Source: Psilocybe cubensis | Lineage: Eukaryota | DNA: 64,000 bases | Reading direction: 5' to 3' | Assembly: GCA_017499595.2 (NCBI GenBank) | Contig: CM039004.1 | Span: 3,410,001-3,474,000 of the forward strand | Shown here: positions 4,201 through 62,557 of the stretch, piece after piece | Numbering within the stretch: position 1 is the stretch's first letter | Layout: each line of letters starts with the position of its first letter | Program-made: the position numbers and the translations under genes | Notes under the pieces: generated by a model | Told to the model about the DNA's origin: nothing | Database searches by the model: none | What the model saw: the letters and a program-made list of their open reading frames with translations, nothing else

Positions 4201-4869
4201 CCACGATATTGATTTCCACAACGGATTAGCAGCTGCAGTACAACTTTAACACTCACTCACAGAGTGAATCAAGCAAACAACATCCCTCAGGGGCTCCTGA
4301 ACATTAGCATATTAGAGTAAGAGTGTCGATTAGACGATGAGGGCATGTACAAGACACCCGCATCTCTTCTACACTACACCAACCCCACATCTACACCGAA
4401 ATCTCCTATCCACACCCACCCAAATGCACCATCCAAAACGCCCCACCCCTCCAATCCCCGAGAACAGTGCAGAACCACATTCCACGTACGTAGCATGCTG
4501 CAACGAGTGTCGTTGTTTCTCATTTCACAAATCTTCTAGGGATTTGAAGAAAAAAAAAAAATAAAGCTCGCTAGCGGAGCCGAGTAGTTAGGTGCTAAGA
4601 GCGGAATGTGCCGTGTGGAATGGAGGCGATTGGGATGGGCTCGAATCGCGAATCGGGAGGTGGGGAGGATGTGCATAGGTGCATAGGTGCAATTGTTGGT
4701 GAGCTTGTTGAAAAATTTGACCCGTGTGGGTCGATATGACTGTAAAGAGGGATTAGCATGCACTCATTGGGTAACCCTGTCCTGTACTATGTCTTTGTAT
4801 TTCATGGTTTTCAATCCTATTCCTTGTTTCTTTGTCAGGCGCTTAACGTTGTCACCACAAAACACATAT

Positions 4870-5045
4870 TAGCGTTGGTTAGGGTTTATGGTTTAGGGTT
4901 GGTGGTGACCACAAAAATACAGATTAGGATGGTTTAGGGTTTAGGTTTTAGGGCTGGTTGGGATTTGATAATACCATAAAAGCACAGATTAGGCTGGTTA
5001 GGGTTGGTAAATACAATTATATATGTAGCAGATTAGGGTTGGTGT
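4870..5045 (+). repeat. Degenerate interstitial telomere-like tract
   Basis: TTAGGG/TTTAGGG/GGTTGG variants interleaved with CACCACAAAA and ACAGATTAGG motifs; homologous to 34765-34975. Confidence 0.75.
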
Positions 5046-18399: not shown

Positions 18400-19500
18400 T
18401 ATGGATTATTAGCTCAGAGTGGTTGATGGATATTTTACAAGGAAATGGATAGACTTCAAACATTGATGGACAGTAAGGAAAGGTATCAATGACAGTGAAT
18501 GATGGGAAATGTTACGGGGAACCAAATTAATAAGTGCCTGATCTTCACGGGTGACAAGCGGGATGGATTAACGGGAGGCCATGGATGACAAGGGCATTCA
18601 ATAATCAACGTTGGTATGGATGGAGACTGCGCACTGCACGGGTGTCAAGAGTGATGGATAAGTAGAGGGGCAATGAATGATTAGGGCAATAAATGAGCGC
18701 GATGGATAATGAGAAGAGAAATGGATGTTGAGGGTGATGAATAATGAACGCACATATCGATAGGCGCCTGCACTACGCGGGTGTCAAGCCTGATGGATAA
18801 TCAGAGAAATGGATGTCGAGGGCGATCAATAATGAATGTGGGAATGGATGAGGGGCAGCCTGTGCAATGGTGGAGGGCGATGGATAATAAGAAAGGCAGT
18901 TGATGTCGAGGATGATGAATAATGAACATAGATATCGATAGGCGCCTGCACTGTGCGGGTGTCAAGCCTGATGGATAATCAGAAAGGCAATGGATGTCGA
19001 GGGATATCAATAATGAACGTACATATTGATAGGCACCTGCACTGCGCGGGTGTCAAGCGTGATGGATAATCAGAAGGGCAATGGATGTTGAGGGAGATCA
19101 GGCTGATGGATAATTATATGGGCAACGGATGACAAGGGCAATGAATAATGAACGTACATATCGATAGGCGCCTGCACTGCGCGGGTGTCAAGTGTGATGG
19201 ATAATCGGAAGGGAAATGGATGTCAAGGGAGATCAGGCTGATGGATAATCATATGGGCAACGGATGACAAGGGCAATGGATAATGAACGTACATATCGAT
19301 AGGCGGGTGCACTGCGCGGATGTCCAGCGTGATGGATAATCAGAAGGGCAATGGATGTTGAGGCCCATGGATGACATACTAGTTATGGATTACGAAGGGG
19401 TATGAATGACAGCGTGGGTATTGAATAATGGCTCAGCAGTTTGGGGAATACTATGGATAAAGTTCTAATGTATCTATCATAAAGGCGTTGGATAATTATT
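18400..19500. repeat. Right subterminal repeat array of the KDZ element
   Basis: Many GATGGATAA motifs and multiple copies of ATAATGAACGTACATATCGATAGGCGCCTGCACTGCGCGGGTGTCAAG. Confidence 0.85.
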
Positions 19501-19719
19501 GATGGGGAATGCATTGCCGTGGCTCATATATGAGGTATGCGCAAGGTCTTCTGGAGGTTGATATATAAGAACGACTGCTACGCCTCGTTTTCACGGTCTT
19601 ATAATCCATCGCAGGGTTCACTTTGAGATTGGAAGCTACGAATCGACAGCTAGGGGTTGCATTGAGCAACTTCTTGGTAAGTATATTTTCCATCACAGCT
19701 TTGGAGGTGTTCTAATTTG

Positions 19720-20365
19720 ATTTAGATGCTTCGACACCATATGTCGATTTCCCGCGACCGCCCCCCCGTTGGAAGCTATGTATCGAGTGCTAGGGAAGGG
19801 TATGTACATGTTGGAGGGTTTTGAGTACGCACTGACCTTTTCTGCAACCCCAGATGTTCCGACGCCATGTATCGAATTCCCGCAACCGACCCCGCACATG
19901 TGGAAGCTATGGTAAGTGCACATTGTCAACATGTTCTTTGTGTTGTCTGACCTTGTTTCTGTAGCGCAGGATGCTCCGACGCCATATATCGCTTTCCCGC
20001 AACCCACCCTGTGGATTCATTAGACCTTGAAGCTACGCTGGTAAGCACATTTTGTTGTAGGGTTTTGAATATGGTCTGACCTTGATTTTATAGCTATGAC
20101 GCTATGTAATGCGTTCCCGCGACCCGTCTTGTCTGCTAGGGGCATTGAGGTTGGGGTGTGGTAAGTACGTGGCGTTGCATTGTTCTGGCATTCCCTGACC
20201 TTGACCCTGTAGCTCTGACCCTATGTGTCACGTTCCCGCGACCAGTCTTGTGTGCTAAGGGTGTTTGAGGTTTGAGTCTGGTGCGTACATGACCTTGTAT
20301 TGTTGTGGGTACGTTCTGACGTTGATATTATAGCTGTGACGCTATGTATCGGTTTCCCGCGAGCA
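19720..20365 (+). repeat. Tandem exon-intron repeat array (~110-120 bp units, xTPxIxFPRP-like exon)
   Basis: About six units of AG|..GACGCYATRT..TTCCCGCRAC..|GT...CTGACC..YAG. Confidence 0.7.
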
Positions 20366-22429
20366 GCCTATCACCTCATGTACATCCTCATCTAACCCTT
20401 ACCTTTTGACACGACATCCGCGACCTTGTCCACTGTACACCACGCCTCGTCGTTGTCCCGACACGGCGTATCACCGTCCGGCTTGCACTCGACAGCGAGC
20501 TGACAGTGTGAGGTTGACGCAACCAATGGTGACTTCCTCCTCCCCCGATTCATCGCTTTACGATGTTTCAAACATTTCCATTCACTAAATATCTTATTAT
20601 AGACTACTCGCCTACCAAAGATAACTTGGATTTGGTGCTACAGAACCCAGAAGCCGGCTGCCAGAAGTTTTTAATATCATACAGCGCAGGCTCGTATGAA
20701 CAACGTGGTGTAGATACCGCGGCTGTTTTCTGCATTTCGGCCATTTGAAGGGCATCGGTGTACACAATTGGGTGCTGTGATGTCCGTTGGTTGAAGACTT
20801 GGTGGTGCGTGGTGCAGAGATAATGGTTGAAAATTGGACATGTTCACGCTGAGATGTGAACTCGGGTACATCATATATTTTCTTTGTCTCCGAAGTTCTA
20901 TAGCACTATTAGAGTTTTAAAGGCGCAAAAAAGTATGTAATGTACCTGAATCGGTGTGTCATTAAAGTTGAGTGCGGCTGAGCAAAGTTGAAGGTGTCAA
21001 AAACTGATAAGCGCCCGAATACACTCTCAACGAAATCAAACAAAAATGAAGAAATACCTGAACGTTAAACTCATTTCACATTCTCCCCTGTACAGTTGGC
21101 TACGCAGTACACCATTCGGTACTCGTACCGTGAACAATCACAACAAATTTTTCAAAATTTCCAACTCACGTACATGTCCACATCCTCTCCCTCCCCTAAT
21201 TTGCAATTCCAGCCTGTTTCCAACTTTTCCTTTCGTTACGGGTCTTCTCGGGCACTAGCAGAGACCTGCTCGGATCGGCTACAGTACCGTTACACGACCT
21301 ACAAGGTCAGAAGAAGTGAGGGAAAACGACATCGGCCCCATTGCATTTGGAGGATTCGACGTACGTGGCGAGCCATTCTGCGTCGTTTCCGTGTCTTTCC
21401 TGGATTTTGGAGCTTCTGAGTACGTTGGTTGTGGTGCAGGACTGCCGATTGTGCCCGGATTAATGGTTGGTATGTCGGAAATTTTGTTCTCATCGCGTAC
21501 CGTTGTGCGGAGTCATGATTGGAATGCCCACTTCATTCAAATAACACTTTTACCTAGTGTACGTCTATTTCAATGTAAAGCTGGACTGTCTGTATGACTT
21601 TGGGATTCACTGTGCCCGGTGTGCGATATTCAACTTTACATTGACTATGAACATCAGTTAAGCACCGAGAATGCACATCTTTGCATACAACGCAAATAAC
21701 ACTTTAATCAGAAATCACATGTCTATACTCGGCAACAACGCAACGTCAGCTCTTACCTTTCCACCAGACCACCACGGCCACCCACAACGAGTCTGGACAC
21801 AGGATAAAGCAGCCACACGACAAAGGAAGAGGTTACTTTCCTCCTGTTGCAAGACTTTAGCATTCTACCGGAAATGCGAGCATCAAGCACACGAGTGTGA
21901 GATATTACCCTTCAAATACGTCGAACCAGCTCCTACCGGTTCGTCGCTCTCTTACACCTCTACCCCCACCACCTTTTGCATCAGCTCATTTGCCTTTTTC
22001 CCAATCTCTTATCATACTCCCTCGCACTTGCGGTAGATATCAACCTAGCAAGCGTCAGATTAACTAGCAAGCACCGCTCGAAATGTGAGAGAGTTTAGGA
22101 TTTCAGTACAGTCGGCGCCTCGTAGATGTTCAAATTGTCTGAACTCAAGTGCCACGTCATTGTATTTTGCGTAGTTTTTGTGCAATGTATCCATTTCAAC
22201 GCAGTTCTTTCGACACCCCTTGGCAGAAAAAAGGATAAAGAGGGAGTACATTTGCTGAATTCCAGCCGTGCATTATGCCCTGATGCTGGGGGAATGTTCC
22301 ACCACCGCTATCCGTTGTTTGGCCATGCCAAACATGGACACTGCCATCGCATCACACTTTGACTATGAACCACCACCATGGGTAAGTTTTTCAGTCGTCA
22401 TCAGAGTTCCACGGTACTGACCATGCATT

Positions 22430-23260
22430 TCAGGGTTCGATTTGAGATTTGGACGGCCGGTGAACATTGAGCAAAAAGGCTTGGTGACTGAAAGGTATGT
22501 AGTTTACATCTGGTGTTGATCACTGTACTGACTTTTGCATTTGTGTGGACAGCTGGTGTCGTATTGAGGGTGACTTGTTGGTAAGCACATCACTTTGCAG
22601 GGTTTGGGAGTTGTTCTGACCTTTTTTTTCAGCCCAGAATGCTCAGAGGCAATGTATCGACTTCCCGCGAGCGGTCCATCGGGTCTTTTAAAGACTGAAT
22701 ACTCCGACACGACATATTGATTTCCCGGGAGTTGCCCATCTACTCGACTTGTACATTGAGATATGGCAAGTACATTGACTTTGAGTGCTCTGGTCACTTT
22801 CTGATGTTTACTTTATAGTCTGAGTACTCCGACGCAACATATCGACTTCCCGCGAGCTGCCGACTTACCCAACTTGTACATCGAGTGGTAAGTAAGTTGA
22901 CTTTGAGTGCTCTGGTCACTTTCTGACGTTTACTTTATAGTCTGAATACTCCGGCGCAACGTATCGACTTCCCGCGAGCGGTCCATCTGCTATTTTATAG
23001 CTCCGACGCAATGTATCAATTTCCCGCAAACCGCCATCTACCCAACTTGTATATCAAAATATGGTAAGTGCTTTGGGCACATTCTGACCTTTATTCCATA
23101 GTCTGAATGCTCGGACGCAATGTATCGACTTCCCGCGAGGTGACCTGTTAGAAGACATTCAAGGAGAGTTGGTAAGTACGTCAATTCGAGGTATTTTTCA
23201 TGCGTTCTGACCTCGTTTGTGTAGCCAGAGTGCTTTGACGCGACATATCGACTTCAAGGC
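22430..23260 (+). repeat. Second tandem exon-intron repeat array, ending at telomeric repeats
   Basis: Same TATCGACTTCCCGCGA core with GTAAGT donors and TTCTGAC branch sites; stops just before (TTTAGGG)n at 23281. Confidence 0.7.
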
Positions 23261-23280: not shown

Positions 23281-23312
23281 AGGGTTTAGGGTTTAGGGTT
23301 TAGGGTTTAGGG
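23281..23312 (+). repeat. Interstitial telomeric repeats (TTTAGGG)4; attachment site of retroelement copy 1
   Basis: AGGG(TTTAGGG)4 read directly. Confidence 0.95.
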
Positions 23313-23378
23313 TGGGAGCGAGCACCGAGCGAAGCGAGGTGCGAGCGACTTGTTTAAACTGTGAGTTAAATGGAAAGA

Positions 23379-23443
23379 AGCCAGAGGGCTGTTTGGGGGT
23401 ACAAACGGCCAGCCCTTTCGTCTTTATAGACTCTTCAGTGGCT
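23379..23443 (-). ncRNA. Type I hammerhead ribozyme (copy 1)
   Basis: Minus strand: AGCCA CUGAAGA GUC-UAUAAA-GAC GAAA GGGCUG-loop-CAGCCC UC^UGGCU. The complete core and three stems are present; the predicted cut is between 23384 and 23383. Confidence 0.9.
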
Positions 23444-23978
23444 ATTCTTAGAAGGAATGTTCTGGAACATCCGATGACAGCGCGTGAAGTGATGCTGCGC
23501 AGCTGTCATGTATCTTACCGACTATCACAAATCTGTCAATGTTTATTGTCAAGTTAGACAGGTCTCTGATGAACAGAGTGTCACGGGTCAATGTGGCACA
23601 TGGTAACCTGTCAAAAGTGGATCCAACACTTTTGTTCTTTGACATCGTGGGTTATTGACTGTGATGTGAATCACATGGATATAGAGTACTCTGGTTACGT
23701 GGCTCCGAGTAACCGCGACATGGGAATATTCACATGTCTAGAGTATAAATAGCTTACCTAAGTCCTTACCTAACAATCAATTGATTGATTGTTGTGAATC
23801 TTAATTGGACAGTTCATGATCCGGTCCATCAAAAATGTTTCCACGGTACTAAGGAACTTTTCCCGAAGTACTAAGTAACTTTTCCCATGTACTAAATTAG
23901 ATCCGGCCCTTCACAATCACATGCCGTTCGGAAGTTCACACGCCTACCTTACTTCCTACTAAGGTTAGACTTAGTTAG

Positions 23979-24040
23979 CTTAGGGTTGGGGTTAGGTTAG
24001 GGCTTAGGGTTTAGGGTTTAGGGTTTAGGTTTAGGTTTAG
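23979..24040 (+). repeat. Telomere-like tract inside the retroelement 3' UTR
   Basis: TTAGGGTTGGGGTTAGGTTAGGGCTTAGGG(TTTAGGG)2TTTAGG; also at ~28397, ~29857 and ~62383. Confidence 0.9.
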
Positions 24041-24152
24041 CTATTTAATCCAATGTGTTGCTTGTAAGTAGATGTTTGTTACTTTATAGCAAGGAATACT
24101 TACGGTTAGGGTTTTTTTCTAATGCTTTACGCCTTACGCGCTAGTATTCTTT

Positions 24153-27100
24153 TCATCGGTTGTAAGATTTGGATATTCTGCCGAATTCTGGATGTTCCCT
24201 CTCTTGTGAGATTGAATGTCTATGAAGTATTATCTCGTTATCGCTTTCGATACTTATCTGTTCAGCAGCTTCAACTAGAGCAGAATGATAAGTTTCATTG
24301 ACGTTTTGAGTTTCGGGAACAACACCACCTTTTTCGGCAATGTCTTCATCCAGTTTACGAAAAACTGTTTTCTTCCACACATTTGCAAGGTCGAAAAGAT
24401 TAGTATTGCGTTTTCGCGATACTATCCAACGACTTCCGAGTAGTCCTATCTTCCTCAAATCCGGTACGAACTCAGTTTCTCCGTCCACGAGGATCTGTGT
24501 GAACAGCTCCGGGCGAACATCATCGAGGTCGTGAACGTAATTTGGGTCTGGTTTGATAAGGGGTTTGGACGGGTCTGCATTATACAGACCTTTCTCGGCA
24601 TGTTCATACCATGCCGACCAATACTCGGTAACAGTTTTTCCAAGTTCAGCAGCTGAAAACCAATTCCATACCTGGTCAAATCTGGTTTTAAGTACAAGAA
24701 TGGATTTGTCGTGCTCTGCGATTCGTAAAGCGAATCGCTTTTCCCAACGTTCTTGTATATTCTTCTTACACCAAGACATTACTAGGTTTTCGGGATAACC
24801 GCGCACCAAATAGAGAGCGTTAAGGTCTCTAATTGCTCCGATGTAGATTTCCTTAGTACTACACAACACGGCTAGCCTGGATAACTCTCCAATGTAAACG
24901 CCACGTTTGACGTCCAAAGGATGATGTGATACCCATGGAACTCGTTCTCGGTTGTTTCCTGTCTTGACAAATGGCTTCCAATGAAGTTTTCCAGACTCCT
25001 TGAAAATGAAAGCATCGAGAAATTGACATCCCGACGAGGAAACAGCCCATTCGATAACACAACCATCGAACTTTATTGTTTCTTTAATAAGATTAAGTGC
25101 AAGTGCTTCGGACTCGGCGTAAACAATTGCGAAACAATCGTCGATGTACCTTCCATAGAAGGCCACGTTTGGGTGGTCTAAGATTTTTGACATTATTTCA
25201 AAATGGGCTCCAAAGAGGTTAGCAAGGTCCGGGGAATCCGCGACGCCCATTGCAAGGCCATTTTTTTGTCTAAAATATCTAGACCCATGTTGTGTTATCA
25301 ATTGCGTATTGCCAATCTCGATAGCACGTTTAAAGATGCCCAATTTAACCAAGTTATTCTCTAACGAATTTGGATTAATATGGGCTAATGCAGTATTTTC
25401 TTCCGAAGCGTTGAGTAACCATTCCTCGTACATACTACAAACGATGTCAATGCACGAGTCCAACGGGATATTGGGATAGAAAGCAACTACATCTCCAGTG
25501 ACAAAATACCATTGTCTTTTGGAGTCTATACGCAATTGGCTTAATCTCGTAAAGAGATCCTTCGTTCCGTGAATGATTGAAGGAGTCGATTTAATAATCG
25601 GCTTAAGCTCTTTTGATACAAACTTGGCTGCAGGATTAAATACTACAGAGTGACACGGAATTATGGGCCTAAATCCAGTAGGTTTCTTGTGGATTTTAGG
25701 TATACCATGAAATTGAGGATACTTGAACGATGATCCGTCTTCCGGTACATTCGATAGAAAGAATCGAGACAGCCCAAGTTCATAAAGAAACAGATGTTCA
25801 TCTTCGACAGTACGTGCGAGAGTTTGCATCTGGATCATTTTGCTCTTCATAACTTCTTGCGCAACTTCAAATTCTAACTCTTCGTAGTTACGTTCATCTT
25901 CAAGAAGATTGAGCTCATTCCTTAATATCCAGTCGCGTTCAGACACCGCGAGGCCAAGATTCTTATCTGTCATCGTAATAACATAGTTGTTATCGATAAG
26001 AAACTTACGGATCTTGTCCCTTTTAGGAGAGAACGCGTGCTTTCGCATCTCCGTAAGGGCTTCTTCCTGGATACTTGCGATCGTGCGTTGCACGTACCGA
26101 CGTCCCATCGAAAGGCCAAGTTCCATATATTGCGGTAATACTGGAGGTTTCTCCTTTTTCTTAGAGCTTACTCCATAATCTGGATCAAAAGGTTTGTTCA
26201 TGCCTTCCTTAAACAAAAAATAGATACGCCATCTTATTCTTCGTTGAAAATCGTTCCATGCTTGCATGATCAGACTTTGAGAAGGCAGAGTAAAAAACAT
26301 ATAATTGAGTCCGAGCGACAAATCATTTGCTATATCTACAGGGACCACCACACCAGGACTACAAGGTACACTACTACGATACTGGCCAGCCAACAAGAAT
26401 GAGATCGGCGTATGTAAGTGTACAAAAGAAACTGCGTCTGTTTTAGTCATGGTGAGTATATCGTCAGGAATAGAGTTGGGGAAGGCGGGTCTTACCGACG
26501 TAAAAGGTACTACATTAGACCGCGCGTCTAGGCTCTTGCCTTTCCCTTTCCCTTTGGATTGTTCTTGACGGGAGCTCTCCCCTTCCCTTTCTTCTTGTTG
26601 TCGACCTTGTTGGAAGCCTTGGTTTGGGGCTTCCTCTGCGAAGGCGTCGACGACGACTTGGGTTTCGAAGGGCCAGCTTTCTTGGCCTGAGGTTGAGGAG
26701 CCTTGGACGAATTCTGGCCAGACAAAGTCTGGGTAATTAGAATAGTAATTAGTATCCAAAATTATGGGTGAAGGGTTACGAGAACTTGCCTTCTTGCCCA
26801 CAGATCCAAGGTTGAGCTTCTTGAGACGTGCATTCAAGCCCTTATCAATAAGGGATTGAATCGATGGACCTGGTTTGGTCGCATCGGCCATCTCGACATC
26901 GGCTGTTGCCGCAGTCGACCGCTTTTTCTCAATCTTGATTGCCAAAGCGCGGTGGCGCAAGTTGACAATCTGTTTGATATGAGAGAAGATGGCTGGCAAA
27001 ATGGTTTGCAATGCGCTGCATTCAGCCTTCTTCTGCGGTGACACTACCCAATCTGTTATTCGACGAACTCCCTTGTTGTCTGTAGAGAAAACGGGGAGCT

Positions 27101-27683
27101 TATAGCTGGATTTGCGATCATCGTAAGTTGTCTTAACGATGAGGGCAGCAGCTTCATAACAGTTATTGAGTGCGCATTTATCATCCCAAAAGGCCAGTTC
27201 GTCCTTTTTCGCCTGGATGGCGCCGTCATTAATCGCCTTTTGGAAGACGTCACGAGCGGTGGAGAACGTAGAGGAGACTCGAAGAGCCTCCGCTGACCCG
27301 GCATCCGCGAATTCCTTCGTGAGTTGGAACTCGGGAGCCTTCACCCGAAGGCGATTGGGGGTGTTGCCTGCGCTAACGGCAAGTTCAAGGCGCTCAAGGC
27401 TAGCCTTGACTGTTTCCCTCTTGTCGCACCACGATGCGAGGTTGAGGAGAAACTCCCTAAGGGCAGCACGATAGTCAAAAAAGACGCAGTCTACGATCTG
27501 GTCAATGGAGCGGCACTCAGCTATTTTTTTGATGACGACAGTGGCCAACTCGTCGATGAGGGCGTTGTGGCGGCCAGCTTCGTCGTTGACGCCAAAGACT
27601 GTATTGTTGACGACAGCCTGGGTGAGTGCGTCCAGGGTGGGGGACATGGCACGAGAGAAGGCAGCAGAGTAAGTGGAAGACAT
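24153..27683 (-). CDS. ORF1-reverse transcriptase fusion (Penelope-like RT, no endonuclease), 1176 aa
   Basis: RT motifs DKNLG, GIPKIHK..GFRPII, TGDVVAFYPNIP, QKNGLAMGVADSPDLANLF, YGRYIDD and FLD, plus PLE C-terminal SHHP..KRG...ELSRL...RGYP. The N-terminus is helical or coiled-coil. Confidence 0.93.
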   Translation of the reverse strand: MSSTYSAAFSRAMSPTLDALTQAVVNNTVFGVNDEAGRHNALIDELATVVIKKIAECRSIDQIVDCVFFDYRAALREFLLNLASWCDKRETVKASLERLELAVSAGNTPNRLRVKAPEFQLTKEFADAGSAEALRVSSTFSTARDVFQKAINDGAIQAKKDELAFWDDKCALNNCYEAAALIVKTTYDDRKSSYKLPVFSTDNKGVRRITDWVVSPQKKAECSALQTILPAIFSHIKQIVNLRHRALAIKIEKKRSTAATADVEMADATKPGPSIQSLIDKGLNARLKKLNLGSVGKKASSRNPSPIILDTNYYSNYPDFVWPEFVQGSSTSGQESWPFETQVVVDAFAEEAPNQGFQQGRQQEEREGESSRQEQSKGKGKGKSLDARSNVVPFTSVRPAFPNSIPDDILTMTKTDAVSFVHLHTPISFLLAGQYRSSVPCSPGVVVPVDIANDLSLGLNYMFFTLPSQSLIMQAWNDFQRRIRWRIYFLFKEGMNKPFDPDYGVSSKKKEKPPVLPQYMELGLSMGRRYVQRTIASIQEEALTEMRKHAFSPKRDKIRKFLIDNNYVITMTDKNLGLAVSERDWILRNELNLLEDERNYEELEFEVAQEVMKSKMIQMQTLARTVEDEHLFLYELGLSRFFLSNVPEDGSSFKYPQFHGIPKIHKKPTGFRPIIPCHSVVFNPAAKFVSKELKPIIKSTPSIIHGTKDLFTRLSQLRIDSKRQWYFVTGDVVAFYPNIPLDSCIDIVCSMYEEWLLNASEENTALAHINPNSLENNLVKLGIFKRAIEIGNTQLITQHGSRYFRQKNGLAMGVADSPDLANLFGAHFEIMSKILDHPNVAFYGRYIDDCFAIVYAESEALALNLIKETIKFDGCVIEWAVSSSGCQFLDAFIFKESGKLHWKPFVKTGNNRERVPWVSHHPLDVKRGVYIGELSRLAVLCSTKEIYIGAIRDLNALYLVRGYPENLVMSWCKKNIQERWEKRFALRIAEHDKSILVLKTRFDQVWNWFSAAELGKTVTEYWSAWYEHAEKGLYNADPSKPLIKPDPNYVHDLDDVRPELFTQILVDGETEFVPDLRKIGLLGSRWIVSRKRNTNLFDLANVWKKTVFRKLDEDIAEKGGVVPETQNVNETYHSALVEAAEQISIESDNEIILHRHSISQEREHPEFGRISKSYNR
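26528..27683 (-). CDS. Predicted spliced ORF1 protein (~364 aa) with Lys-rich tail
   Basis: Removing intron 26729-26789 (AAG|GCAAGT...CTAAT..CCAG) joins ..GSVGKK in frame to TLSGQNSSKAPQPQAKK...KGKGKARA*. Confidence 0.65.
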
Positions 27684-27715
27684 AGTAGCTGTTGGGTAAT
27701 AGCAAAGTCAAGTGG

Positions 27716-29147
27716 TTTAGGGTGGGAGCGAGCACCGAGCGAAGCGAGGTGCGAGCGACTTGTTTAAACTGTGAGTTAAATGGAAAGAAGCCAGAGGGCT
27801 GTTTGGGGGTACAAACGGCCAGCCCTTTCGTCTTTATAGACTCTTCAGTGGCTATTCTTAGAAGGAATGTTCTGGAACATCCGATGACAGCGCGTGAAGT
27901 GATGCTGCGCAGCTGTCATGTATCTTACCGACTATCACAAATCTGTCAATGTTTATTGTCAAGTTAGACAGGTCTCTGATGAACAGAGTGTCACGGGTCA
28001 ATGTGGCACATGGTAACCTGTCAAAAGTGGATCCAACACTTTTGTTCTTTGACATCGTGGGTTATTGACTGTGATGTGAATCACATGGATATAGAGTACT
28101 CTGGTTACGTGGCTCCGAGTAACCGCGACATGGGAATATTCACATGTCTAGAGTATAAATAGCTTACCTGGGTCCTTACCTAACAATCAAACAATAGAAT
28201 GATTGATTGTTGTGAATCTTAATTGGACAGTTCATGATCCGGTCCATCAAAAATGTTTCCACGGTACTAAGGAACTTTTCCCGAAGTACTAAGTAACTTT
28301 TCCCATGTACTAAATTAGATCCGGCCCTTCACAATCACATGCCGTTCGGAAGTTCACACGCCTACCTTACTTCCTACTAAGGTTAGACTTAGTTAGCTTA
28401 GGGTTGGGGTTAGGTTAGGGTTTAGGGTTTAGGGTTTAGGGTTTAGGGTTTAGGTTTAGCTATTTAATCCAATGTGTTGCTTGTAAGTAGATGTTTGTTA
28501 CTTTATAGCAATGAATACTTACGGTTAGGGTTTTTTTCTAATGCTTTACGCCTTACGCGCTAGTATTCTTTTCATCGGTTGTAAGATTTGGATATTCTGC
28601 CGAATTCTGGATGTTCCCTCTCTTGTGAGATTGAACGTCTATGAAGTATTATCTCGTTATCACTTTCGATACTTATCTGCTCAGCAGCTTCAACTAAAGC
28701 AGAATGATAAGTTTCATTAACGTTTTGAGTTTCGGGAACAACACCACCTTTTTCAGCGATGTCTTCATCCAGTTTACGAAAGACTGTTTTCTTCCACACA
28801 TTTGCAAGGTCGAAAAGATTAGTATTGCGCTTTCGCGATACTATCCAACGACTTCCGAGTAGTCCTATCTTCCTCAAATCCGGTACGAACTCAGTTTCTC
28901 CGTCCACGAGGATCTGTGTGAACAGCTCCGGGCGAACATCATCGAGGTCGTGAACGTAATTTGGGTCTGGTTTGATAAGGGGTTTGGACGGGTCTGCATT
29001 ATACAGACCTTTCTCGGCATGTTCATACCATGCCGACCAATACTCGGTAACAGTTTTTCCAAGTTCAGCAGCTGAAAACCAATTCCATACCTGGTCAAAT
29101 CTGGTTTTAAGTACAAGAATGGATTCGTCGTGCTCTGCGATTCGTAA
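27716..29147 (-). mobile_element. Coprina-type element copy 2, 5'-truncated; forms the upstream pLTR of copy 1
   Basis: Near-identical repeat of the 3' UTR and the RT C-terminus; ends at TTCGTAA and is capped by telomeric repeats. Confidence 0.9.
27789..27853 (-). ncRNA. Type I hammerhead ribozyme (copy 2)
   Basis: Same sequence as the copy 1 ribozyme. Confidence 0.9.
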
Positions 29148-29181
29148 GGGTTTTATAGGGTTTAGGGTTTAGGGTTTAGGG
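29147..29181 (+). repeat. Telomeric cap on truncated copy 2 and attachment site of copy 3
   Basis: AGGGTTTTATAGGG(TTTAGGG)3. Confidence 0.9.
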
Positions 29182-31020
29182 GGGGAGCGAGCACCGAGCG
29201 AAGCGAGGTGCGAGCGACTAGTTTAAACTGTGAGTTAAATGGAAAGTAGCCAGAGGGCTGTTGATTGATATCAGCAGCCAGCCCTTTCGTCTTTATAGAC
29301 TCTTCAGTGGCTATTCTTAGAAGGAATGTTCTGGAACATCCGATGACAGCGCGTGAAGTGATGCTGCGCAGCTGTCATGTATCTTACCGACTATCACAAA
29401 TCTGTCAATGTTTATTGTCAAGTTAGACAGGTCTCTGATGAACAGAGTGTCACGGGTCGATGTGGCACATGGTAACCTGTCAAAAGTGGATCCAACACTT
29501 TTGTTCTTTGACATCGTGGGTTATTAACTGTGATGTGAATCACATGGATATAGAGTACTCTGGTTACGTGGCTCCGAGTAACCGCGACATGGGAGTATTC
29601 TCATGTCAAGAGTATAAATAGCTTACCTGGGTCCTTACCTAACAATCAAACAATAGAATGATTGATTGTTGTGAATCTTAATTGGACAGTTCATGATCCG
29701 GTCCATCAAAAATGTTTCCACGGTACTAAGGAACTTTTCCCGAAGTACTAAGTAACTTTTCCCATGTACTAAATTAGATCCGGCCCTTCACAATCACATG
29801 CCGTTCGGAAGTTCACACGCCTACCTTACTTCCTACTAAGGTTAGACTTAGTTAGCTTAGGGTTGGGGTTAGGTTAGGGTTTAGGGTTTAGGGTTTAGGG
29901 TTTAGGTTTAGCTATTTAATCCAATGTGTTGCTTGTAAGTAGATGTTTGTTACTTTATAGCAATGAATACTTACGGTTAGGGTTTTTTTCTAATGCTTTA
30001 CGCCTTACGCGCTAGTATTCTTTTCATCGGTTGTAAGATTTGGATATTCTGCCGAATTCTGGATGTTCCCTCTCTTGTGAGATTGAACGTCTATGAAGTA
30101 TTATCTCGTTATCACTTTCGATACTTATCTGCTCAGCAGCTTCAACTAAAGCAGAATGATAAGTTTCATTAACGTTTTGAGTTTCGGGAACAACACCACC
30201 TTTTTCAGCGATGTCTTCATCCAGTTTACGAAAGACTGTTTTCTTCCACACATTTGCAAGGTCGAAAAGATTAGTATTGCGCTTTCGCGATACTATCCAA
30301 CGACTTCCGAGTAGTCCTATCTTCCTCAAATCCGGTACGAACTCAGTTTCTCCGTCCACGAGGATCTGTGTGAACAGCTCCGGGCGAACATCATCGAGGT
30401 CGTGAACGTAATTTGGATCTGGTTTGATAAGGGGTCTGGACGAGTCTGCACTATACAGACCTTTCTCGGCATGTTCATACCATGCCGACCAGTACTCGGT
30501 AACAGTTTTTCCAAGTTCAGCAGCTGAAAACCAATTCCATACCTGGTCAAATCTGGTTTTAAGTACAAGAATGGATTCGTCGTGCTCTGCAATTCGTAAA
30601 GCGAATCGCTTTTCCCAACGTTCTTGTATATTCTTCTTACACCAAGACATTACTAGGTTTTTGGGATAGCCGCGCACCAAATAGAGAGCGTTAAGGTCTC
30701 TAATTGCTCCTATGTAGATTTCCTTAGTACTACACAACACGGCTAGCCTGGATAACTCTCCAATGTAAACGCCACGTTTGACGTCCAAAGGATGATGTGA
30801 TACCCATGGAACTCGTTCTCGGTTGTTTCCTGTCTTGACAAATGGCTTCCAATGAAGTTTTCCAGACTCCTTGAAAATGAAAGCATCGAGAAATTGACAT
30901 CCCGACGAGGAAACAGCCCATTCGATAACACAACCATCGAACTTTATTGTTTCTTTAATAAGATTAAGTGCAAGTGCTTCGGACTCGGCGTAAACAATTG
31001 CGAAACAATCGTCGATGTAC
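29182..31020 (-). mobile_element. Coprina-type element copy 3, 5'-truncated at the YIDD motif
   Basis: 3' UTR plus RT C-terminus; homology ends at GTCGATGTAC(CT), where the X module begins. Confidence 0.9.
29247..29313 (-). ncRNA. Type I hammerhead ribozyme (copy 3, variant loop III)
   Basis: Core conserved, stem I UAGCCA/UGGCUA, different stem III loop. Confidence 0.88.
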
Positions 31021-31195: not shown

Positions 31196-31363
31196 GAGGC
31201 CGGCCTCCAAATTGATGGAGGTCACTGGAGGCCGGCCTCCGTCTAAAAATAATTTTTGACAGGCACTGGAGGCCGGCCTCCGTCTAAAAATAAATTTTGA
31301 CAGGCACTGGAGGCCGGCCTCCGTCTAAAAATAAACGCGTCGAGGCCACCTGAGGCCGGCCTC
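31196..31363. repeat. 41-bp-periodic array of the palindrome GGAGGCCGGCCTCC
   Basis: Palindromes at 31227, 31268 and 31309, with 12-bp versions at 31196 and 31352. The same array occurs at 45127-45254 and 58256-58423. Confidence 0.92.
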
Positions 31364-34764: not shown

Positions 34765-34975
34765 TACACCACAAAACACATATTAGCCTTGGTTGGGGTT
34801 AGGGATTAGGGTTGGTGGTGACCACAAAAATACAGATTAGGATGGTTTAGGGTTTAGTTTTTAGGGTTGGTTGGGATTCGATATACCACAAAAGCACAGA
34901 TTAGTCCGGTTAGGGTTGGTTAGCATTGGTTAGGGTTGGTAATTACAATTACATATTTAGCTGGTTAGGATTGGA
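34765..34975 (+). repeat. Degenerate interstitial telomere-like tract
   Basis: Paralogue of 4855-5045. Confidence 0.75.
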
Positions 34976-37900
34976 TTCCACGTTCGGGCGGCAATACATG
35001 GTGTCTAATGTACTATAGCACCCATACTACGCAGCGAGGTTCTAGCAGACAAGAAGGTTGGGGATGTAGTTTAGATCATGAGGTCTTTGCATATTGTAGG
35101 CGAGTATGTATATTTGATGTTGAATTAGTAGGTAACATAGGTTATCGGACGGGGATGTAGCTAAACCCTGGAATCCACACATGGAAGCAGGCCTGCATCC
35201 TTCTGTATACTTTCCTTCCATCGCAACACCCATCCAAACACCAAGGAAGGAGGTGGAAATAGAAGCGTCCACACATCATCACGATTGTTATTAGCGAGTA
35301 ACCCAGAGTCCGCATGGGTGATTGCCAACTTTAATATATGGACATTAGCGGTTTGCGCATATGGCATATCGAGACGCCCTGCGCAGAGTTGACGCGGCAC
35401 TGGGACAGGCACAGAGATGAGCGGGGGAGCTGTAAGTCATGAGGGGGTGGAGGGGGTCTGCAGCGGATTGTGCACGTATGACTTTTTGCAGCTAGTGTGT
35501 TGATGTTAATGTCGAAGTTGCCATTGTGGTCATGAAGGGAGGTTGGGGGGGATGTATAAATTGTGTGTGTGTTTGGAGGCGGGTTTGCTTGAAAATGGTG
35601 CAAGAGTTGGGCAACAGTGTTGAGCTGGACACAGTTGGTTGTGGTTACGGAGTGGGATTAAGATAGGAGGATGGGAATTCGCATGATTGAATGGTACCCA
35701 TTACACTCGTATCATCCTCCTCTGTCTTCAGTCAATTTCGCTTGCATCTTGTGAGTGTTGACTTATTGGTTGTCAAATTGGTGGCGGATGTATCCGGTAT
35801 CCGTAGGAGAGGACCTGCGGGCGGTGGTTGTAAAAGGGGGAGTTGGTGAGGTTGTATATGGCGGGAGTCAGTGATGGTGACGTTGTGGAGTAGACGGAGA
35901 CGGATGTGATGGTAAATGTGGAAGTGTACGTACCATTAAAGCGTGATATGTAAATCGAGGAAGTGTCCGTCACCACTTCAGCTTGAGTATAGAGGCCGTT
36001 ATCGAGCTGCTCCGCGGATATTCAGATGAGGGGTGGTGTGATATGGTTGCGGTAAGGAAGAAGACGGAGGAACTGACCATGGCCGTGCTTTTGACATGCA
36101 GTGGCAGTAGGGAGAATGTATCAAAGGGTGATATTTGAAGTGCGGAGGCTTGACGAGGATCGGAGATAAGCCGCGTTTTCTGCTGCTTCTTCTAAAAGCC
36201 TCTTGGGACCCATTCTTGCACTGTCATAAAAGGCGACATGCAGACGAACAAGAGACGAGAGTGAATTTTTACAAGTCCGTCGATTGCTGCCAGCATAATA
36301 AGGACAAATACGCGAGATACTCGTCGCATGTAACGGCTTGCCCACTCCGCTCCACCCACCTTGCTCCAATGCATCCCAAGAAGCGCAAGCCCTAGGCCTG
36401 CCTGCGGAGGAACATTCTTGATTGACATCAACTCTTCGACGTCTCGACTCTTGCCTCAGGAATGTGACCACTGCGCGGGAAACCCTGCAGACGGACAAAA
36501 CGACCCTCTATACGTTGGCTAAACCTCATCCCTCTTTGGGGATACTAACATGCCGGACATCGTAAAAGGGTTGTGTGTAGTCCATGTGTATTGTTCATTG
36601 GTATGATCGCTTTTGTCATTCTTCGTTTCCTTCGCTTCCTGTGGATAGGATTATAAATTATAAACTCTCTTTAACAATATTCAGCATTACGTTCAACGAC
36701 AACGGTGGGAGCTACGTTCTGTCTCACTCCTGCTTCTATACCTTCTACAATCGAGGTACGTGGTCATGCATGCATCAATAGTTACCAAGCTAATATTACT
36801 TTCAGGTGCATAGTCGTTTACTTCCTGTGTGCGTGCAGCGGGCGATGTGCGGGTTGCATTTGACACAAGCATGGGCATCAGCGCTCTGCTAGTGCTACCC
36901 ATTTGAGACTGTGCCATCACGTCTGTGTGAGTGTGTGTGCGCAGCGGCGACAGGTGGTCTGCAGTTGATAACCAAGGTGCTTCAACACTGTACTACTCAT
37001 TCAGAGTGTGTCTCTTACCTTCATGTCCCTCTCCAGCGTGTGTGCAGAGAGCAATCGATGGCCTGCGGGAGACGAAGCATGCTCCGTCCGTGCCTCGCTG
37101 TTCTTTGAGTATTGCTCTTACCTCGAGAGGCCGCAACGGGTGGCCTGCAGTCGACAACCAAGGTGCGTCATCATCGTTCCGCTTATCGAGAGTGCTGGAT
37201 CTTATCGTCGGTATATAGGCGGCATCAACGAGGACCGCGGTGTCTTGTGCAAGCGGGGATTCTACAGTGGAAGGAAATGGGCACTGTAGGTTGTGGTGTC
37301 TGTCAGCGTCGTTGTCTACGAGGGATGCGCGGCTCACCGGATGGGATGAAGTAGAGGAGTGTAGAGCACACCAGAGAAGGGGATGAGGGAATGAAGAATG
37401 CCAATTAGGGTGAGTTGTCTGTATTGGTCTCTACAGCTTGTACTTACCTCGTTTAAGTTCTCTTCTCCTCACATCCGCGCCTCGCTTTCTACATAGCCAA
37501 GTCAATTTTGAATGCTTGTGCTGGGATTCACTCATCACAATTGACTCACAGTGGGTCGTGACGCCGTGAACACCCCAACCCAACTGATATGGAGGGGACT
37601 GCTTTGCAGGTGCCTGTACTCTTTATCAGAGTATGGGTACTTACTTGTCCCGCCGTACCCTTCCTTCTTCGACGTCAACAACGGCGCATCAACGGCGGGA
37701 TTGAGCACTCAAAGAAAGTTGCAATCGTAACCCAGTGCCTGGGCTGAGAATGACCCATCGACGTGGAGGGCGGAGCGCGAGTCCAACAGCGTCGATATGC
37801 CGACGTGTCGCCCTTGCTATCACTACGACCGCTCTGCCATCAATCTCATCCTCGTTCGTGTTCTTGTGTTCAACGACGGCTGCGCATCCAGAAAAACCGC

Positions 37901-44952: not shown

Positions 44953-45720
44953 CTAAGCTTATTCCCCCCCGAAGGGGGGGCCTTCGTTGCATTGGGCCTC
45001 CTGTTCAGAAATCCTGAAATCTGATGCCAGATTCGGATTCCTTGACCCCGAAAACCCCCAAATCAACTTTTAAAATATTTTATTTTGTACATACGGAGGT
45101 GCTACATAATTAAACATGTAATTTATGGAGGCCGGCCTCCAAATTGATGGAGGCCACTGGAGGCCGGCCTCCGTCTAAAAATAACTTTTGACAGGCACTG
45201 GAGGCCGGCCTCCGTCTAAAAATAAACAGTGACAGGCACTGGAGGCCGGCCTCCCGCCTGTCTCACCACCCCCGACGCATGCGCTCGCTGTCCCAATGCC
45301 TGCGCTCGCTGTCCCAACACTCGCGCTCGCTATCCCGACACTCGCACTCGCCGCTGCGTGTCTTTGCACTGCCACCTCCGGGCCGCTGCTGCTGCCACCA
45401 CCTCCACTCGCCGCCTGTTGCTGCCGCCTCCGCCTCCATTTGCAGCCTCTCTCTGCCGCCGCGCCGCCTTCCCACCGGCAACGTACGGCGAGTTGTTTGT
45501 CCATGCTGTTGTCATTTCATTCAAACTCCGCCTTTACAATTGACTCCTGACGCGCACCGCAGCGACAATATTATAACCCGCCTTCGCTCGTTGCCCACAA
45601 CGACACACACATTGTTGCGTGTTGTTGCGCCACCACCCCCGCGACTCCTCCACCGCCGCCGCCTTCGCTCGCCGCCCACAACAACATGCAGCCGAGAAAG
45701 CGTTCGTGTTTGTTTGTGCT
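44953..45720. mobile_element. X module copy B terminus (diverged variant)
   Basis: Same terminus, C7-GAA-G7 hairpin and palindromes at 45127, 45159, 45200 and 45241; patchy homology to 31480-31660 continues to ~45720. Confidence 0.75.
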
Positions 45721-53879: not shown

Positions 53880-56800
53880 GAGTGTCTGCCAACCTCATAG
53901 CACTCAGGATACGCATCAAGGAAGGGCATATATTTCTTGAAGCGGTAGAACCTCTAGAGTCCTCGGATATTATCTCAGTTTCGTATTTTTCAGCCTGTGA
54001 TCTTGATATTCCCCCAATCTCTTCTGTCCTCAATTCCACAACCACTCAATCCTCTTCTATTTTGTTTACATCAGCTCTATCCAACCTCTGTCCAGCTAAC
54101 ATTCCTAACATGCCCACTCAATCCTTCCCATTGTGCTTTAATCTTCAACATTCATTACCTTTCCCATTAGAATCCGCTTCCTCAAATCTAGACCCCACTC
54201 CAGCAATATTTGCCGCCACCAAGAAGAAGTATAAGCCAGTATCAAAGAAGACGCGACCTATTTATGGAGAGCTTCCGGAGAAGTATCAAATTATCCGCAA
54301 TATTATTGGAGATCCTCTCGCCTCCTTACCATCCCTGAGCACCACACCTCCTCCATTTCAACCTATTGGGCGCTATACCGACGAGCGCATGAAGCTAGTT
54401 GATGCAGCACACTCTTCAAGCTTCCTGTGGCCGGCCGAGCGCGACCTCTTGCACCACTTCATGATGCTACATCAAGATGGCTTCGCATGGAATGATACCG
54501 AGCGTGGTCATTTCCGAGAAGACTTCTTTCCGCCCGTGGAAATTCCAGTCATTCCGCACAAACCCTGGATAGTCCGCAATCGACCCATTCCCCCTGGCAT
54601 CTATGACGAGCTCTGTCGCCTTCTGCAGAAGAAGCTCGATGCGGGAGTGCTTCAAAGATCTTGTGCGTCGTACCGAGGCGGCTGGTTTGCAGTTGTCAAG
54701 AAGGATGGGAAGTCTTTACGTATTGTGCAATCACTGGAGCCGCTCAACGCAGTCACCATTGCGCATTCGGGTGTTACTCCATTCACTGAACAGATTGCAG
54801 AGCAATTTGCAGCACTAGCATGCGTTGGACTATTGGATTTGTTTGTTGGATATGACGAGCGCGCCCTAGCAGAGTCTTCACGAGACTACACCACATTCCA
54901 AACGCCTTTCGGACCCCTTCGCCTCACTACACTCCCTATGGGGTGGACTAACTCTGTCCCTATATTCCACGACGACGTCACATACATTTTGCAGCCAGAA
55001 ATTCCTCACACCACTGTCCCATATATCGACGACGTCCCCATCAAAGGCCCACGTTCCCGCTATATACTTCCCTCTGGCAACTTTGAAACTATCCCGGAAA
55101 ATTCTGGAATACGACGCTTCGTTTGGGAGCACTTCCAAGGTCTTAATCGCGTAGTGCAACGCATGAAATACAGCGGAGGCACTTTCTCTGGCCCCAAATC
55201 GATTCTCTGTGCATCTGAAGTCACCATTCTAGGCCATCGATGCACATACGAAGGCCGTCTCCCGGATTTATCACGCGTCGCCGCTATTTCGAACTGGGGG
55301 CCATGCAAGGACCTTTCTGATGTCCGTTCCTTCCTTGGTACCATTGGAGTCTGTCGATTATTCATCCGTAACTTCGCACATCGAGCCCATCATCTCGTCA
55401 AGCTCACACGCAAAGGCCAGGACTTCGAGTGGACTCAAAATCAAGAACGCGCGCAGCAGGATCTTAAGGAGGCATTGTTAAAGTCACCTGCACTTCGTCC
55501 CATCAATTACACCTCCCCTGCACCTGTCATCGTCTCGGTTGACACTTCCACCATCGCAGTAGGTCACATCCTTGCTCAGTGCGACCCCAGCAACCCGCGC
55601 ATTCGATATTTCGCCCGTTTCGGATCCATAACGCTTAACGAACGCGAGGCGCGTTATTCTCAACCCAAACTCGAGCTGTACGGATTATTTCGTGCACTTC
55701 GCGCACTCAAACTGTATATTTTGGGTGTTCGCAACCTCGTAGTCGAGGTAGATGCGAAGTACATCAAAGGAATGTTGTCAAACCCCGATATTGCACCCTC
55801 AGCAACTATAAATCGATGGATATGTGCTATACTCATGTTCCACTTTGAACTAGTGCACGTACCAGGCGTTCTACACGGTCCAGATGGTCTTTCACGACGC
55901 AAGCCACAGCCTGGAGATGCACCCGAGCCTGAGGACGACTTTGAAGACTGGATCGACGAAATGCACGGTTTTATGCACATCTTAAACCCCATCCTTCCCG
56001 CCGCCTTGATACAGCCTCACATTGTAATCTTTGCTACTTCCACTACAGTTGAACCAGCCCCACCCATTCAGGAGTCTAGTGACTCGGCTCCATCGCCTCC
56101 CATTACTCCCAAGCCCTCGTACTCCATTATTCCACGCTCTGAACTCGCCCACAAAGCTGACAACCGCCTCTTTCAAGTCCGTATATGGCACCAAACCCTA
56201 CAACGTCCTGCCGACATGTCTGATAGTGAATATGCGTCTTTTATGCGATACTGCACCGAGTTCTTCATCTCTGCTGACCGCCTGTGGCGGAAGGATGCCA
56301 ATGGAAGACACAAGGTCGTTGTATTCGCTGAGAAGCGCTTATTTATTATTACAGCTGCGCATGATGATGTGGGACACCATGGGTATTATGCAACACATTC
56401 TCTGATTGCTGAACGCTTCTGGTGGCCATTCATGGGCTTTGACATTGGCTGGTTCGTTCGCACATGCCATATTTGCCAACTTCGACGCACTCATGACATT
56501 CTCATCCTTCCCACTGTCGCTATACCCGCACCACTCTTCTCCAAAGCGTATATGGACACGCTGCACCTCCCTCCGTCGGGTGGCTTCAAATATCTTATCC
56601 AAGCTCGTTGTTCAGTTTGCCACTTCCCTGAATACTGCCCACTTCGACGCGAGATTGCACAAACGATTGGCGAATGGATTATGCGTGATTTAGTATTCAG
56701 ATACGGACCTCTAGTGGAGATTGTGACGGATAACGGCCCCCCAATCGTCAAAGCGATAGAGTACATTGCTAAACGATATCACATCTATCACATTCGCGTC

Positions 56801-61663: not shown

Positions 61664-61712
61664 TTTGGTTTTTAGGGTTTAGGGTTTAGGGTTTAGGGTT
61701 TAGGGTTTAGGG
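61664..61712 (+). repeat. Telomeric repeats added at the break in X copy C
   Basis: TTTGGTT followed by (TTTAGGG)6. Confidence 0.93.
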
Positions 61713-61782
61713 TGGGAGCGAGCACCGAGCGAAGCGAGGTGCGAGCGACTAGTTTAAACTGTGAGTTTGAAATAGAAAGAAG

Positions 61783-61845
61783 GCCAGAGGGCTGTGGACT
61801 GTTGTCCACAACCAGCCCTTTCGTCTTTATAGACTCTTCAGTGGC
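61783..61845 (-). ncRNA. Type I hammerhead ribozyme (copy 4, variant loop III)
   Basis: Core conserved; the loop contains a TGTGGAC/GTCCACA hairpin. Confidence 0.85.
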
Positions 61846-62557
61846 TATTCTTAGAAGGAATGTTCTGGAACATCCGATGACAGCGCGTGAAGTGATGCTG
61901 CGCAGCTGTCATGTATCTTACCGACTATCACAAATCTGTCAATGTTTATTGTCAAGTTAGACAGATCTCTGATGAACAGAGTGTCACGGGTCGATGTGGC
62001 ACATGGTAACCTGTCAAAAGTGGATCCAACACTTTTGTTCTTTGACATCGTGGGTTATTGACTGTGATGTGAATCACATGGATATAAAATACTCTGGTTA
62101 CGTGGCTCCGAGTAACCGTGACATGGGAATATTCTCATGTCAAGAGTATAAATAGCTTACCTGGGTCCTTACCTAACAATCAATTGATTGATTGTTGTGA
62201 ATCTTAATTGGACAGTTCATGATCCGGTCCATCAAAAATGTTTCCACGGTACTAAGGAACTTTTCCCGAGGTACTAAGTAACTTTTCCCATGTACTAAAT
62301 TAGATCCGGCCCTTCACAATCACATGCCTTTCGGAAGTTCACACGCCTACCTTACTTCCTACTAAGGTTAGACTTAGTTAGCTTAGGGTTGGGGTTAGGT
62401 TAGGGCTTAGGGTTTAGGGTTTAGGGTTTAGGTTTAGGTTTAGCTATTTAATCCAATGTGTTGCTTGTAAGTAGATGTTTGTTACTTTATAGCAAGGAAT
62501 ACTTACGGTTAGGGTTTTTTTTCCTAATGCTTTACGCCTTACGCGCTAATATTCTTT

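Follow-up and report, generated by a model that had tools for sequence, protein, structure and literature searches.

Position 23313 ends a telomeric tract, and 2 nt further on begins a 33-nt sequence that can fold back on itself. This locus raises the question of what the hairpin is and in which molecule it folds: the RNA template of the retroelement that it terminates, the DNA copied from that template, or an RNA read from the opposite strand. In the window, by which we mean the whole 64,000-nt stretch of Psilocybe cubensis DNA analysed here, + strand positions 23316-23348 read GA-GC-GA-GCACC-GA-GC-GAA-GC-GA-GGTGC-GA-GC-GA. Four perfect occurrences of these 33 nt were found, all of them on the + strand (at 23316, 27726, 29185 and 61716), where shuffled sequences lead one to expect 0.00; the sequence and the four sites listed in the first-pass annotation were exact in 4/4 cases. 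The symmetry centre is A23332, around which nine Watson-Crick pairs and seven G.A/A.G oppositions are arranged; a GAA loop is closed by C-G, three tandem G.A/A.G steps interrupt the stem, and the purine-rich strand contains two full C-GA-G blocks together with an outer GA-GC-GA register. The apex, GCGAAGC at + strand 23329-23335, matches the d(GCGNAGC) triloop, including the C-G closing pair and the second G-C/C-G pair; the window contains this heptamer 7 times (6.79 expected), in four cases as part of a hairpin copy. The sense (minus-strand) RNA has instead a UUC triloop and UC/CU internal loops, U.C/C.U taking the place of each + strand G.A, just as the first-pass annotation had supposed. 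Because the four are recent copies of one element, their identity is not evidence of selection, and the evidence for more than chance comes from relatives and not from the window copies.

The sense strand of the element is the minus strand, and copy 1 spans 27725..23316 (Table 1). In four of four copies the gap between the (TTTAGGG)n tract and the hairpin is 2-3 nt (for copy 2 the tract is a single unit, 27716-27725), which agrees with the earlier placement of the hairpin directly after the telomeric tract, at the start of the cDNA. In the window, telomere-type (TTTAGGG)n is restricted to the + strand, where 29 matches were counted when one mismatch was allowed. All four copies follow such tracts in one orientation and are arranged head-to-tail with short telomeric stretches between them, copy 2 being 5'-truncated. 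Where an element follows a multi-unit telomere tract in the window, the junction begins at the hairpin-adjacent end in 3/3 cases and at the internal telomere-like tract in none.

Table 1. Features of the retroelement and of the hairpin copies (window coordinates)
Feature	Position	Strand	Remarks
Telomeric tract (TTTAGGG)4.7	23281..23313	+ (G-strand)	Older chromosome end receiving copy 1
Hairpin copy 1	23316..23348	+	33 nt, purine-rich strand
Remainder of the 68-nt 3' tail	23349..23383	-	From predicted cleavage site to hairpin
Predicted type I hammerhead ribozyme	23379..23463	-	Helix I AGCCA/UGGCU, helix II 23438..23416, long helix III
Body of 3' unit "U" (~690 nt, ended by the hairpin)	23464..23977	-	Includes 22-bp tandem repeats 23838-23895
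Internal degenerate telomere-like tract	23978..24040	+	Between ORF-proximal 3' UTR and 3' unit
Single ORF (P0001)	24153..27683	-	1176 aa; reverse transcriptase with DKN and YIDD motifs
5' UTR of copy 1 plus single telomeric unit	27684..27725	-	Unit 27716-27725 joins the tail of copy 2
Hairpin copy 2	27726..27758	+	5'-truncated copy, spans 29153..27726
Hairpin copy 3	29185..29217	+	After tract 29154-29181; copy interrupted near 31020
Hairpin copy 4	61716..61748	+	After tract 61671-61713; copy exceeds window end

The protein P0001, which is followed by about 110 nt of ORF-proximal 3' UTR in copy 1, carries the motifs TDKNLG and YIDD, both invariant in 17 aligned relatives. Its closest named proteins are hypothetical proteins of Psilocybe cubensis (97-98% identity), and hundreds of relatives are found on metagenome contigs of 4-5 kb. 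A Pfam search detected no family in P0001 even at E<=1, and thus no endonuclease (GIY-YIG) domain in the single ORF, and a PDB profile search with P0001 returned no TERT or telomerase match; P0064, a relative with 36% identity to P0001, matches RVT_1 at 2e-8. Precomputed annotations of near-identical proteins give PF00078, PF28514 and PF26215 despite the Pfam-A null for P0001 itself. From its architecture we assign the host element to the endonuclease-free Penelope-like elements (PLEs) of the Coprina type, with its sense on the minus strand.

The internal degenerate telomere-like tract is the element's own part, because equally degenerate flanks recur in copies 2-4. In the four copies the tracts lie at 23978-24040, 28398-28459, 29857-29911 and 62381-62443, with a varying number of perfect units. 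A similar internal tract is seen in nine relatives (loci L003-L005, L009-L013 and L015), and in one of them, L011, a new copy has seemingly been joined at it; the internal tract may serve as a fallback telomeric end. In L011, too, the tail hairpin that precedes the 5' UTR differs from the hairpin at the element's own 3' end (171 versus 4729), which means that the upstream tail comes from a different, younger neighbour and does not reflect terminal redundancy of one RNA. In many of the relatives' contigs only about one telomeric unit separates neighbouring copies.

Several further observations concern the surroundings. The telomeric repeat of this basidiomycete window is 7 nt long (TTTAGGG, at 23281-23313, 29154-29181 and 61671-61713), and the part of PMC8874372 consulted gives TTTAGGG as the telomeric repeat of Stropharia, a related mushroom. 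The 3' ends of related elements (L009-L013, L017-L020) carry CCCTAAA or CCCTAA, presumably matched to their hosts. Tandem arrays with periods of 91-135 bp and 119-122 bp occupy 18701-23260 and, reaching the tract at 23281, resemble subtelomeric satellites. A Ty3/Gypsy-type LTR retrotransposon lies at 51495-57316 (+), with gag with aspartyl protease, RT-RNase H and an integrase zinc domain; its 41-bp tandem arrays are found at 31223-31335, 45155-45254 and 58283-58395, and a Ty3/Gypsy-related insertion seems to break PLE copy 3 near 31020.

On the sense strand, the hairpin tail is preceded by a candidate hammerhead ribozyme. Rfam at gathering thresholds gave 0 matches across the window; in E-value mode the candidate was matched by RAGATH-1-hammerhead with 26.4 bits (E 0.063) and by Hammerhead_3 with 19.5 bits (E 0.38), both below gathering. 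The core and the three helices are present in 4/4 copies, the core with helix II being identical among them, and the MFE fold places three helices round an open core. The candidates in the other copies lie at 27873..27789, 29332..29248 and ~61866..61780, coordinates that were extrapolated from the core positions. Cleavage is predicted after C23384 (between 23384 and 23383) and would leave a 68-nt tail, 23383..23316, which holds the hairpin and is followed by CC and the telomere complement. Since the predicted cleavage falls 68 nt before the 3' end, a template cut by its own ribozyme would lose both its tail and the telomere complement; the tail could be retained if the template were uncleaved or religated RNA, or could be supplied by a neighbouring copy. 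In the excerpts of the PLE literature used here, reverse-complement telomeric repeats adjoin the 3' hammerhead in endonuclease-deficient PLEs (PMC8557442, PMC6431247), and the fungal PLE hammerheads belong to type I and have a large helix III, monomeric cleavage being described for one of them (PMC4209133).

We next turn to the relatives. Metagenome contigs were scanned with an alignment of 17 reverse transcriptases (A1), which yielded 80 loci; the hammerhead-core pattern was found in 48 of them (58 matches), and the classification of tails covers the 55 hammerhead tails with at least 150 nt downstream. A symmetric hairpin with a C-UNC-G apex was detected by a strict rule in 22/55 tails, and the same apex on weaker stems was chosen by eye from the "other" class in a further 7 (L023 twice, L050-L053 and L056), so that this apical motif is present, on different stems, in 29/55 tails. 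Sixteen tails carry an unrelated, fully Watson-Crick hairpin with an A-rich or T-rich loop immediately 5' of the telomere complement, 5 have no clear hairpin, and the remaining 5 have no telomere-like motif within reach, two of these looking like spurious pattern matches. One apex is thus combined with stems as varied as GCACC/GGTGC, GCACGAC/GTCGTGC, ACAAACT/AGTTTGT and CACTGC/GCAGTG. The GA/GA registers, for which the first-pass annotation had proposed a search in homologues, are kept on these different stems in relatives whose proteins are ~35-64% identical. In 25/25 listed rows, 16-29 nt separate the centre of the hairpin from the first CC(C)TAA that follows it, although the scan itself required a telomere-like motif within ~60 nt. 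Judged from these tails, a hairpin beside the priming tract is general in the clade, with the GA type its commonest form and not its sole form. Because 16/55 tails use plain Watson-Crick hairpins, the clade-wide requirement may be for "a hairpin" that is strand-neutral and folds equally well as RNA. At the same site other lineages have GTAGT..ACTAC, GTGTT-A5-ACAC, GCCCAC-TAC-GTGGGC, GCAC-T4-GTGC or GCGCT-GAAG-AGCGC, all free of GA-type mismatches (L016, L021, L025, L026, L036; L054, L059, L060, L063, L064; L039; L004, L005, L015; L008).

The first-pass annotation had also described an echo of the hairpin, a + strand GAA loop close to the junction of a second feature, X, and taken it for a shared signal; the window gave no second comparable GAA-loop hairpin near a telomere-like junction. 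A search for + strand GAA-loop hairpins with at least two closing pairs, up to 70 nt downstream of a telomere-like unit, returned the four copies and unrelated 2-bp matches at 14785 and 25710, and no GAA-loop hairpin was found at the degenerate telomere-like repeats 4854-5040 and 34800-34980. These repeats, which lie within a ~55-bp unit present twice in the window, may be the feature that was called X.

The structure was then assessed by covariation. Twenty-four distinct hairpins (22 loci and the window; alignment A2) were stacked without gaps round the loop, giving 15 symmetric pairs. Standard pairs fill 63.9% of the cells, compared with 42.3% in shuffles; 14 of the 15 pairs have changed on both sides, and both-side changes are seen in 93 cells compared with 42.3 in shuffles, a number reached by 0/500 shuffles, which overstate independence, the 24 sequences being related. 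The covariation score is 0.475, against 0.152 when shuffled and 0.04-0.14 with the partner slid. Overall, the covariation supports the view that the tail hairpin is a real conserved structure.

To which strand this structure belongs can be approached through its mismatches, which we counted in A2 as fixed symmetric pairs at offsets 2-12 from the loop (264 cells). Read on the sense strand, these cells hold 187 Watson-Crick pairs, 60 U.C, 11 A.C and 2 U.U, with one each of C.C, G.U, G.A and A.A; 71 of the 77 non-Watson-Crick cells are therefore U.C or A.C in the sense strand, that is, G.A or G.T in the complement. Because the sense tail is often rich in pyrimidines, U.C is favoured to a certain extent. 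Column shuffles that keep the composition expect ~34 C.C, ~21 G.U, 14 G.G, 13 G.A and ~10 U.U, and 0/2000 of them reach the 71/77 share. Beneath the conserved apex the share is 37/43, and single mismatches between Watson-Crick pairs comprise 10 A.C, 7 U.C and 1 G.U. Further, tandem U.C steps flanked by Watson-Crick pairs read 5'-UC-3' on both arms in 31/31 cases, which is 5'-GA-3'/3'-AG-5' in the complement, and outside the apex this orientation is kept in 16/16 (chance, 1 in 4). The loop is C-U-N-C-G in 24/24 hairpins (N is U in 22 and G in 2; C17, T18, C20 and G21 are invariant), so on the complement the triloop is always G-N-A under a C-G closing pair, and no GNRA tetraloop occurs; the second pair below the loop is G-C in 14 and C-G in 10, and in L039 the loop is UAC, which becomes GTA in the complement. 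A pyrimidine-GA-purine context on both arms is found at 23/31 tandems and, outside the homologous apex, at 8/16 (chance, ~4/16); the exceptions are the outermost tandems of the window hairpin, L001, L042 and L047, the tandem at offset 12 of L019, and the second tandems of L050, L053 and L056.

The hammerhead helices of the same loci serve as a control, because they must fold as sense RNA; counted alike, they give a mixed spectrum (for helix III, 203 Watson-Crick, 5 G.U, 2 A.C, 7 G.A, 6 U.C and 6 other). When the structure was held fixed and RNA parameters were used, each tandem step made the complement 2.1 kcal/mol more stable, and the complement was more stable in 12/24 hairpins and equal in 9; with DNA parameters it was more stable in 20/24. 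A strand test by unconstrained MFE and G.U counts was discarded: it called the antisense strand "more stable" even for hammerhead helix III (29/41), and since this helix folds in the sense, the test is biased by composition. Overall, the pair counts indicate that the non-canonical positions suit the purine-rich strand more than they suit the RNA template.

One and the same hairpin was obtained when all four combinations of strand and molecule were folded: -6.3 kcal/mol (z -1.0) for the + strand as DNA, -5.1 kcal/mol (z -0.7) for the minus strand as DNA, -11.0 kcal/mol (z -2.2) for the sense strand as RNA and -15.2 kcal/mol (z -3.9, with 0/200 shuffles as good) for the + strand as RNA. Nearest-neighbour DNA folding thus gives the 33-mer no special stability (z -1.0; z -0.2 in an 88-nt context), which we read as an absence of support and not as a refutation, because in the excerpted text of PMC13037366 standard parameters fail to reproduce the stability of d(GCGAAGC) and so miss the mini-hairpin motif. 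The same excerpts report a Tm of 76.5 C for d(GCGAAGC) and of 39 C for the RNA counterpart of the tetraloop form, and describe hairpins with a TTC loop as nuclease-sensitive (PMC13037366). By NMR, (CGAG)n DNA hairpins consist of C:G pairs and tandem sheared G:A pairs, with a Tm of 50-77 C, according to the portion of PMC10085684 used here.

Taken together, the sequence comparisons lead us to regard the 33-mer as what appears to be a lineage-specific form of a conserved 3'-end hairpin module of Coprina-type endonuclease-free PLEs, a module that, by its position in the sequence, is flanked on one side by the hammerhead and on the other by the reverse-complement telomeric repeats that would anneal to the chromosome G-overhang. 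The reading that we favour, at about even odds (~0.5), is that the purine-rich strand folds as DNA, either as the first cDNA or as a G-strand exposed later, where it might act as a junction lock or RT anchor, as a nuclease-resistant structure, or in second-strand synthesis. The proposal of the first-pass annotation, selection on the nascent cDNA, is upheld in part: the data speak for selection on the purine-rich strand, most probably in the form of DNA. The mismatch spectrum (71/77), the tandem orientation (31/31) and the G-N-A loop (24/24) favour the purine-rich strand; the context rule outside the apex (8/16) and the ordinary hairpins in 16/55 tails pull the other way, and the DNA folding score (z -1.0) lends no support.

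The functional molecule could instead be the sense RNA, in which a hairpin 5' of the telomere-complement priming tract would be a signal for recognition or positioning by the RT, its U.C loops being tolerated or recognised. Published models, in the excerpts of PMC6431247 and PMC8557442, treat the 3' hammerhead and the repeats as an RNA-level integration module. The constant distance of the hairpin from the first CC(C)TAA, bearing in mind the motif required by the scan, the 3/3 junctions that begin at its side, the predicted RNA fold of -11.0 kcal/mol and the Watson-Crick hairpins of the 16 tails, which would fold well as RNA, all sit comfortably with it. We nevertheless consider it unlikely, given that the helix cells hold a single G.U against 11 A.C and 60 U.C, that the orientation of the tandem mismatches is fixed in 31/31, that under RNA parameters the RNA loses ~2.1 kcal/mol against the complement with every tandem mismatch, and that the hammerhead helices at the same loci show the normal RNA pattern. 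We also know of no U-N-C triloop among the stable RNA motifs, and count this against a fold of the sense RNA. The purine-rich strand might, on the other hand, fold as RNA, in an antisense transcript that resembles TERRA, is made in the direction of the chromosome end and acts, for example, in telomere chromatin or in silencing of the element. The + strand as RNA does have the best predicted fold of the four, and tandem GA steps are stabilising in RNA too, as the fixed-structure comparison indicates; against this stand a loop that is a G-N-A triloop in 24/24 and never a GNRA tetraloop, and the far weaker RNA form of the related mini-hairpin (39 C versus 76.5 C for DNA in the excerpts of PMC13037366), and we hold such a transcript to be quite improbable.

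It is also highly doubtful that the mismatches are structurally meaningless, with a short true stem standing between pyrimidine direct repeats (TCGCTC / YTCR) that are bound by protein or reflect mere composition. TCGCTC occurs three to four times in the window tail and flanks otherwise perfect stems in L001 and L055, the sense tails are often rich in C and T, and the context rule is weak outside the apex (8/16). Yet covariation runs through 14 of the 15 symmetric positions on quite different stem sequences, C.C and U.U are seen once and twice where column shuffles expect ~34 and ~10, and the flanks of the tandems vary (CTCG, TTCA, CTCA/TTCG) in a way that a single motif does not cover.

If the purine-rich strand does fold as DNA, the folding molecule would be single-stranded, namely the first 35 nt of the cDNA extended from the telomeric primer or a G-strand exposed later, and the template RNA version of the hairpin would be deliberately the weaker one. 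On leaving the RT, the hairpin would become a nuclease-resistant DNA structure that locks the junction between telomere and element and prevents slippage or re-annealing on the repeated CCCUAAA units; it could at the same time be a product anchor for a telomerase-related RT and so commit the enzyme to copying the element. This role as junction lock or product anchor is, in our judgement, the most likely one, at roughly one in three. Another role at the DNA level would be that of an entry or stop structure for second-strand synthesis, like the mini-hairpins of G4-type single-strand DNA origins. More broadly, we put forward as a tentative idea that the hairpin is a cis-signal addressed to the DNA product and not to the RNA template, in which the first 35 nt made by the RT would form a nuclease-resistant, GA-paired mini-hairpin, serving as anchor or lock or as an entry site of the G4-origin kind. 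The signal would then be one that retroelements conserve through selection at the cDNA level, and possibly a relic of telomerase-like handling of the product.

Telomerase has its closest relatives in the Coprina and Athena elements, which are also the best model for the endonuclease-free extension of chromosome ends by a retroelement. To the published module of hammerhead and telomere-complement repeats, the hairpin would add a third conserved part. If the folding strand is the nascent cDNA, the first product at the chromosome end would be a structured, nuclease-resistant DNA, and this would matter for the RT's commitment to elongation, for protection of the new end and for synthesis of the second strand; if it is the RNA, the hairpin would be a candidate RT-recognition element beside the priming site, in a place comparable to that of telomerase's template-boundary helix.

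That helix of telomerase RNA, like the 3' stem-loops that the RTs of stringent non-LTR elements recognise, is an RNA structure with normal RNA pairing. The present hairpin resembles the telomerase helix in being a helix directly 5' of a telomere-complement tract, in an RNA copied by a telomerase-related RT; it differs in that the RT must here read through the helix, and in a mismatch spectrum that points to the other strand. With Athena/Terminons and the Coprina 3' module, the element shares an RT ORF in which no endonuclease was detected, a constant orientation at the telomeres to which it is attached, 5'-truncated copies that lie head-to-tail with short telomeric stretches between them, and a predicted type I hammerhead with large helix III (PMC6431247, PMC4209133 and PMC8557442, as excerpted). 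The repeats are there described as "immediately downstream" of the hammerhead, whereas here a 68-nt tail with a conserved hairpin intervenes. Neither such a tail hairpin nor its strand asymmetry appears in the excerpted descriptions of the PLE 3' module in these three papers, a comparison that leaves aside Gladyshev & Arkhipova 2007 and Arkhipova et al. 2017.

Among known DNA structures, the closest parallel is the mini-hairpin d(GCGNAGC), with which the module shares the GCGAAGC apex, the C-G closing pair, the invariant G and A and the variable middle base (excerpts of PMC13037366 and PMC3201870). Its natural cases, in the former, are single-strand origins of phages and promoters, whereas the present one would lie in the cDNA of a retroelement. 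The CGAG-block DNA hairpins of the AUTS2 promoter region are similar in their facing C-GA-G blocks, which pair as one C:G, two sheared G:A and one G:C (PMC10085684, in the part used). The window hairpin has two such blocks in full, and L020 and L024 have as many as four tandem GA steps; unlike in the AUTS2 hairpins, the blocks alternate here with Watson-Crick stems under a triloop cap, and the sheared geometry is presumed. That a hairpin can act in the cDNA made by a retroelement is seen with the cTAR DNA hairpin in the minus-strand strong-stop DNA of HIV-1 (PMC2709575, as excerpted). However, cTAR is simply the complement of an RNA hairpin with a function of its own, and its part is in strand transfer, whereas in the Psilocybe element the DNA form seems to be preferred to the RNA form.
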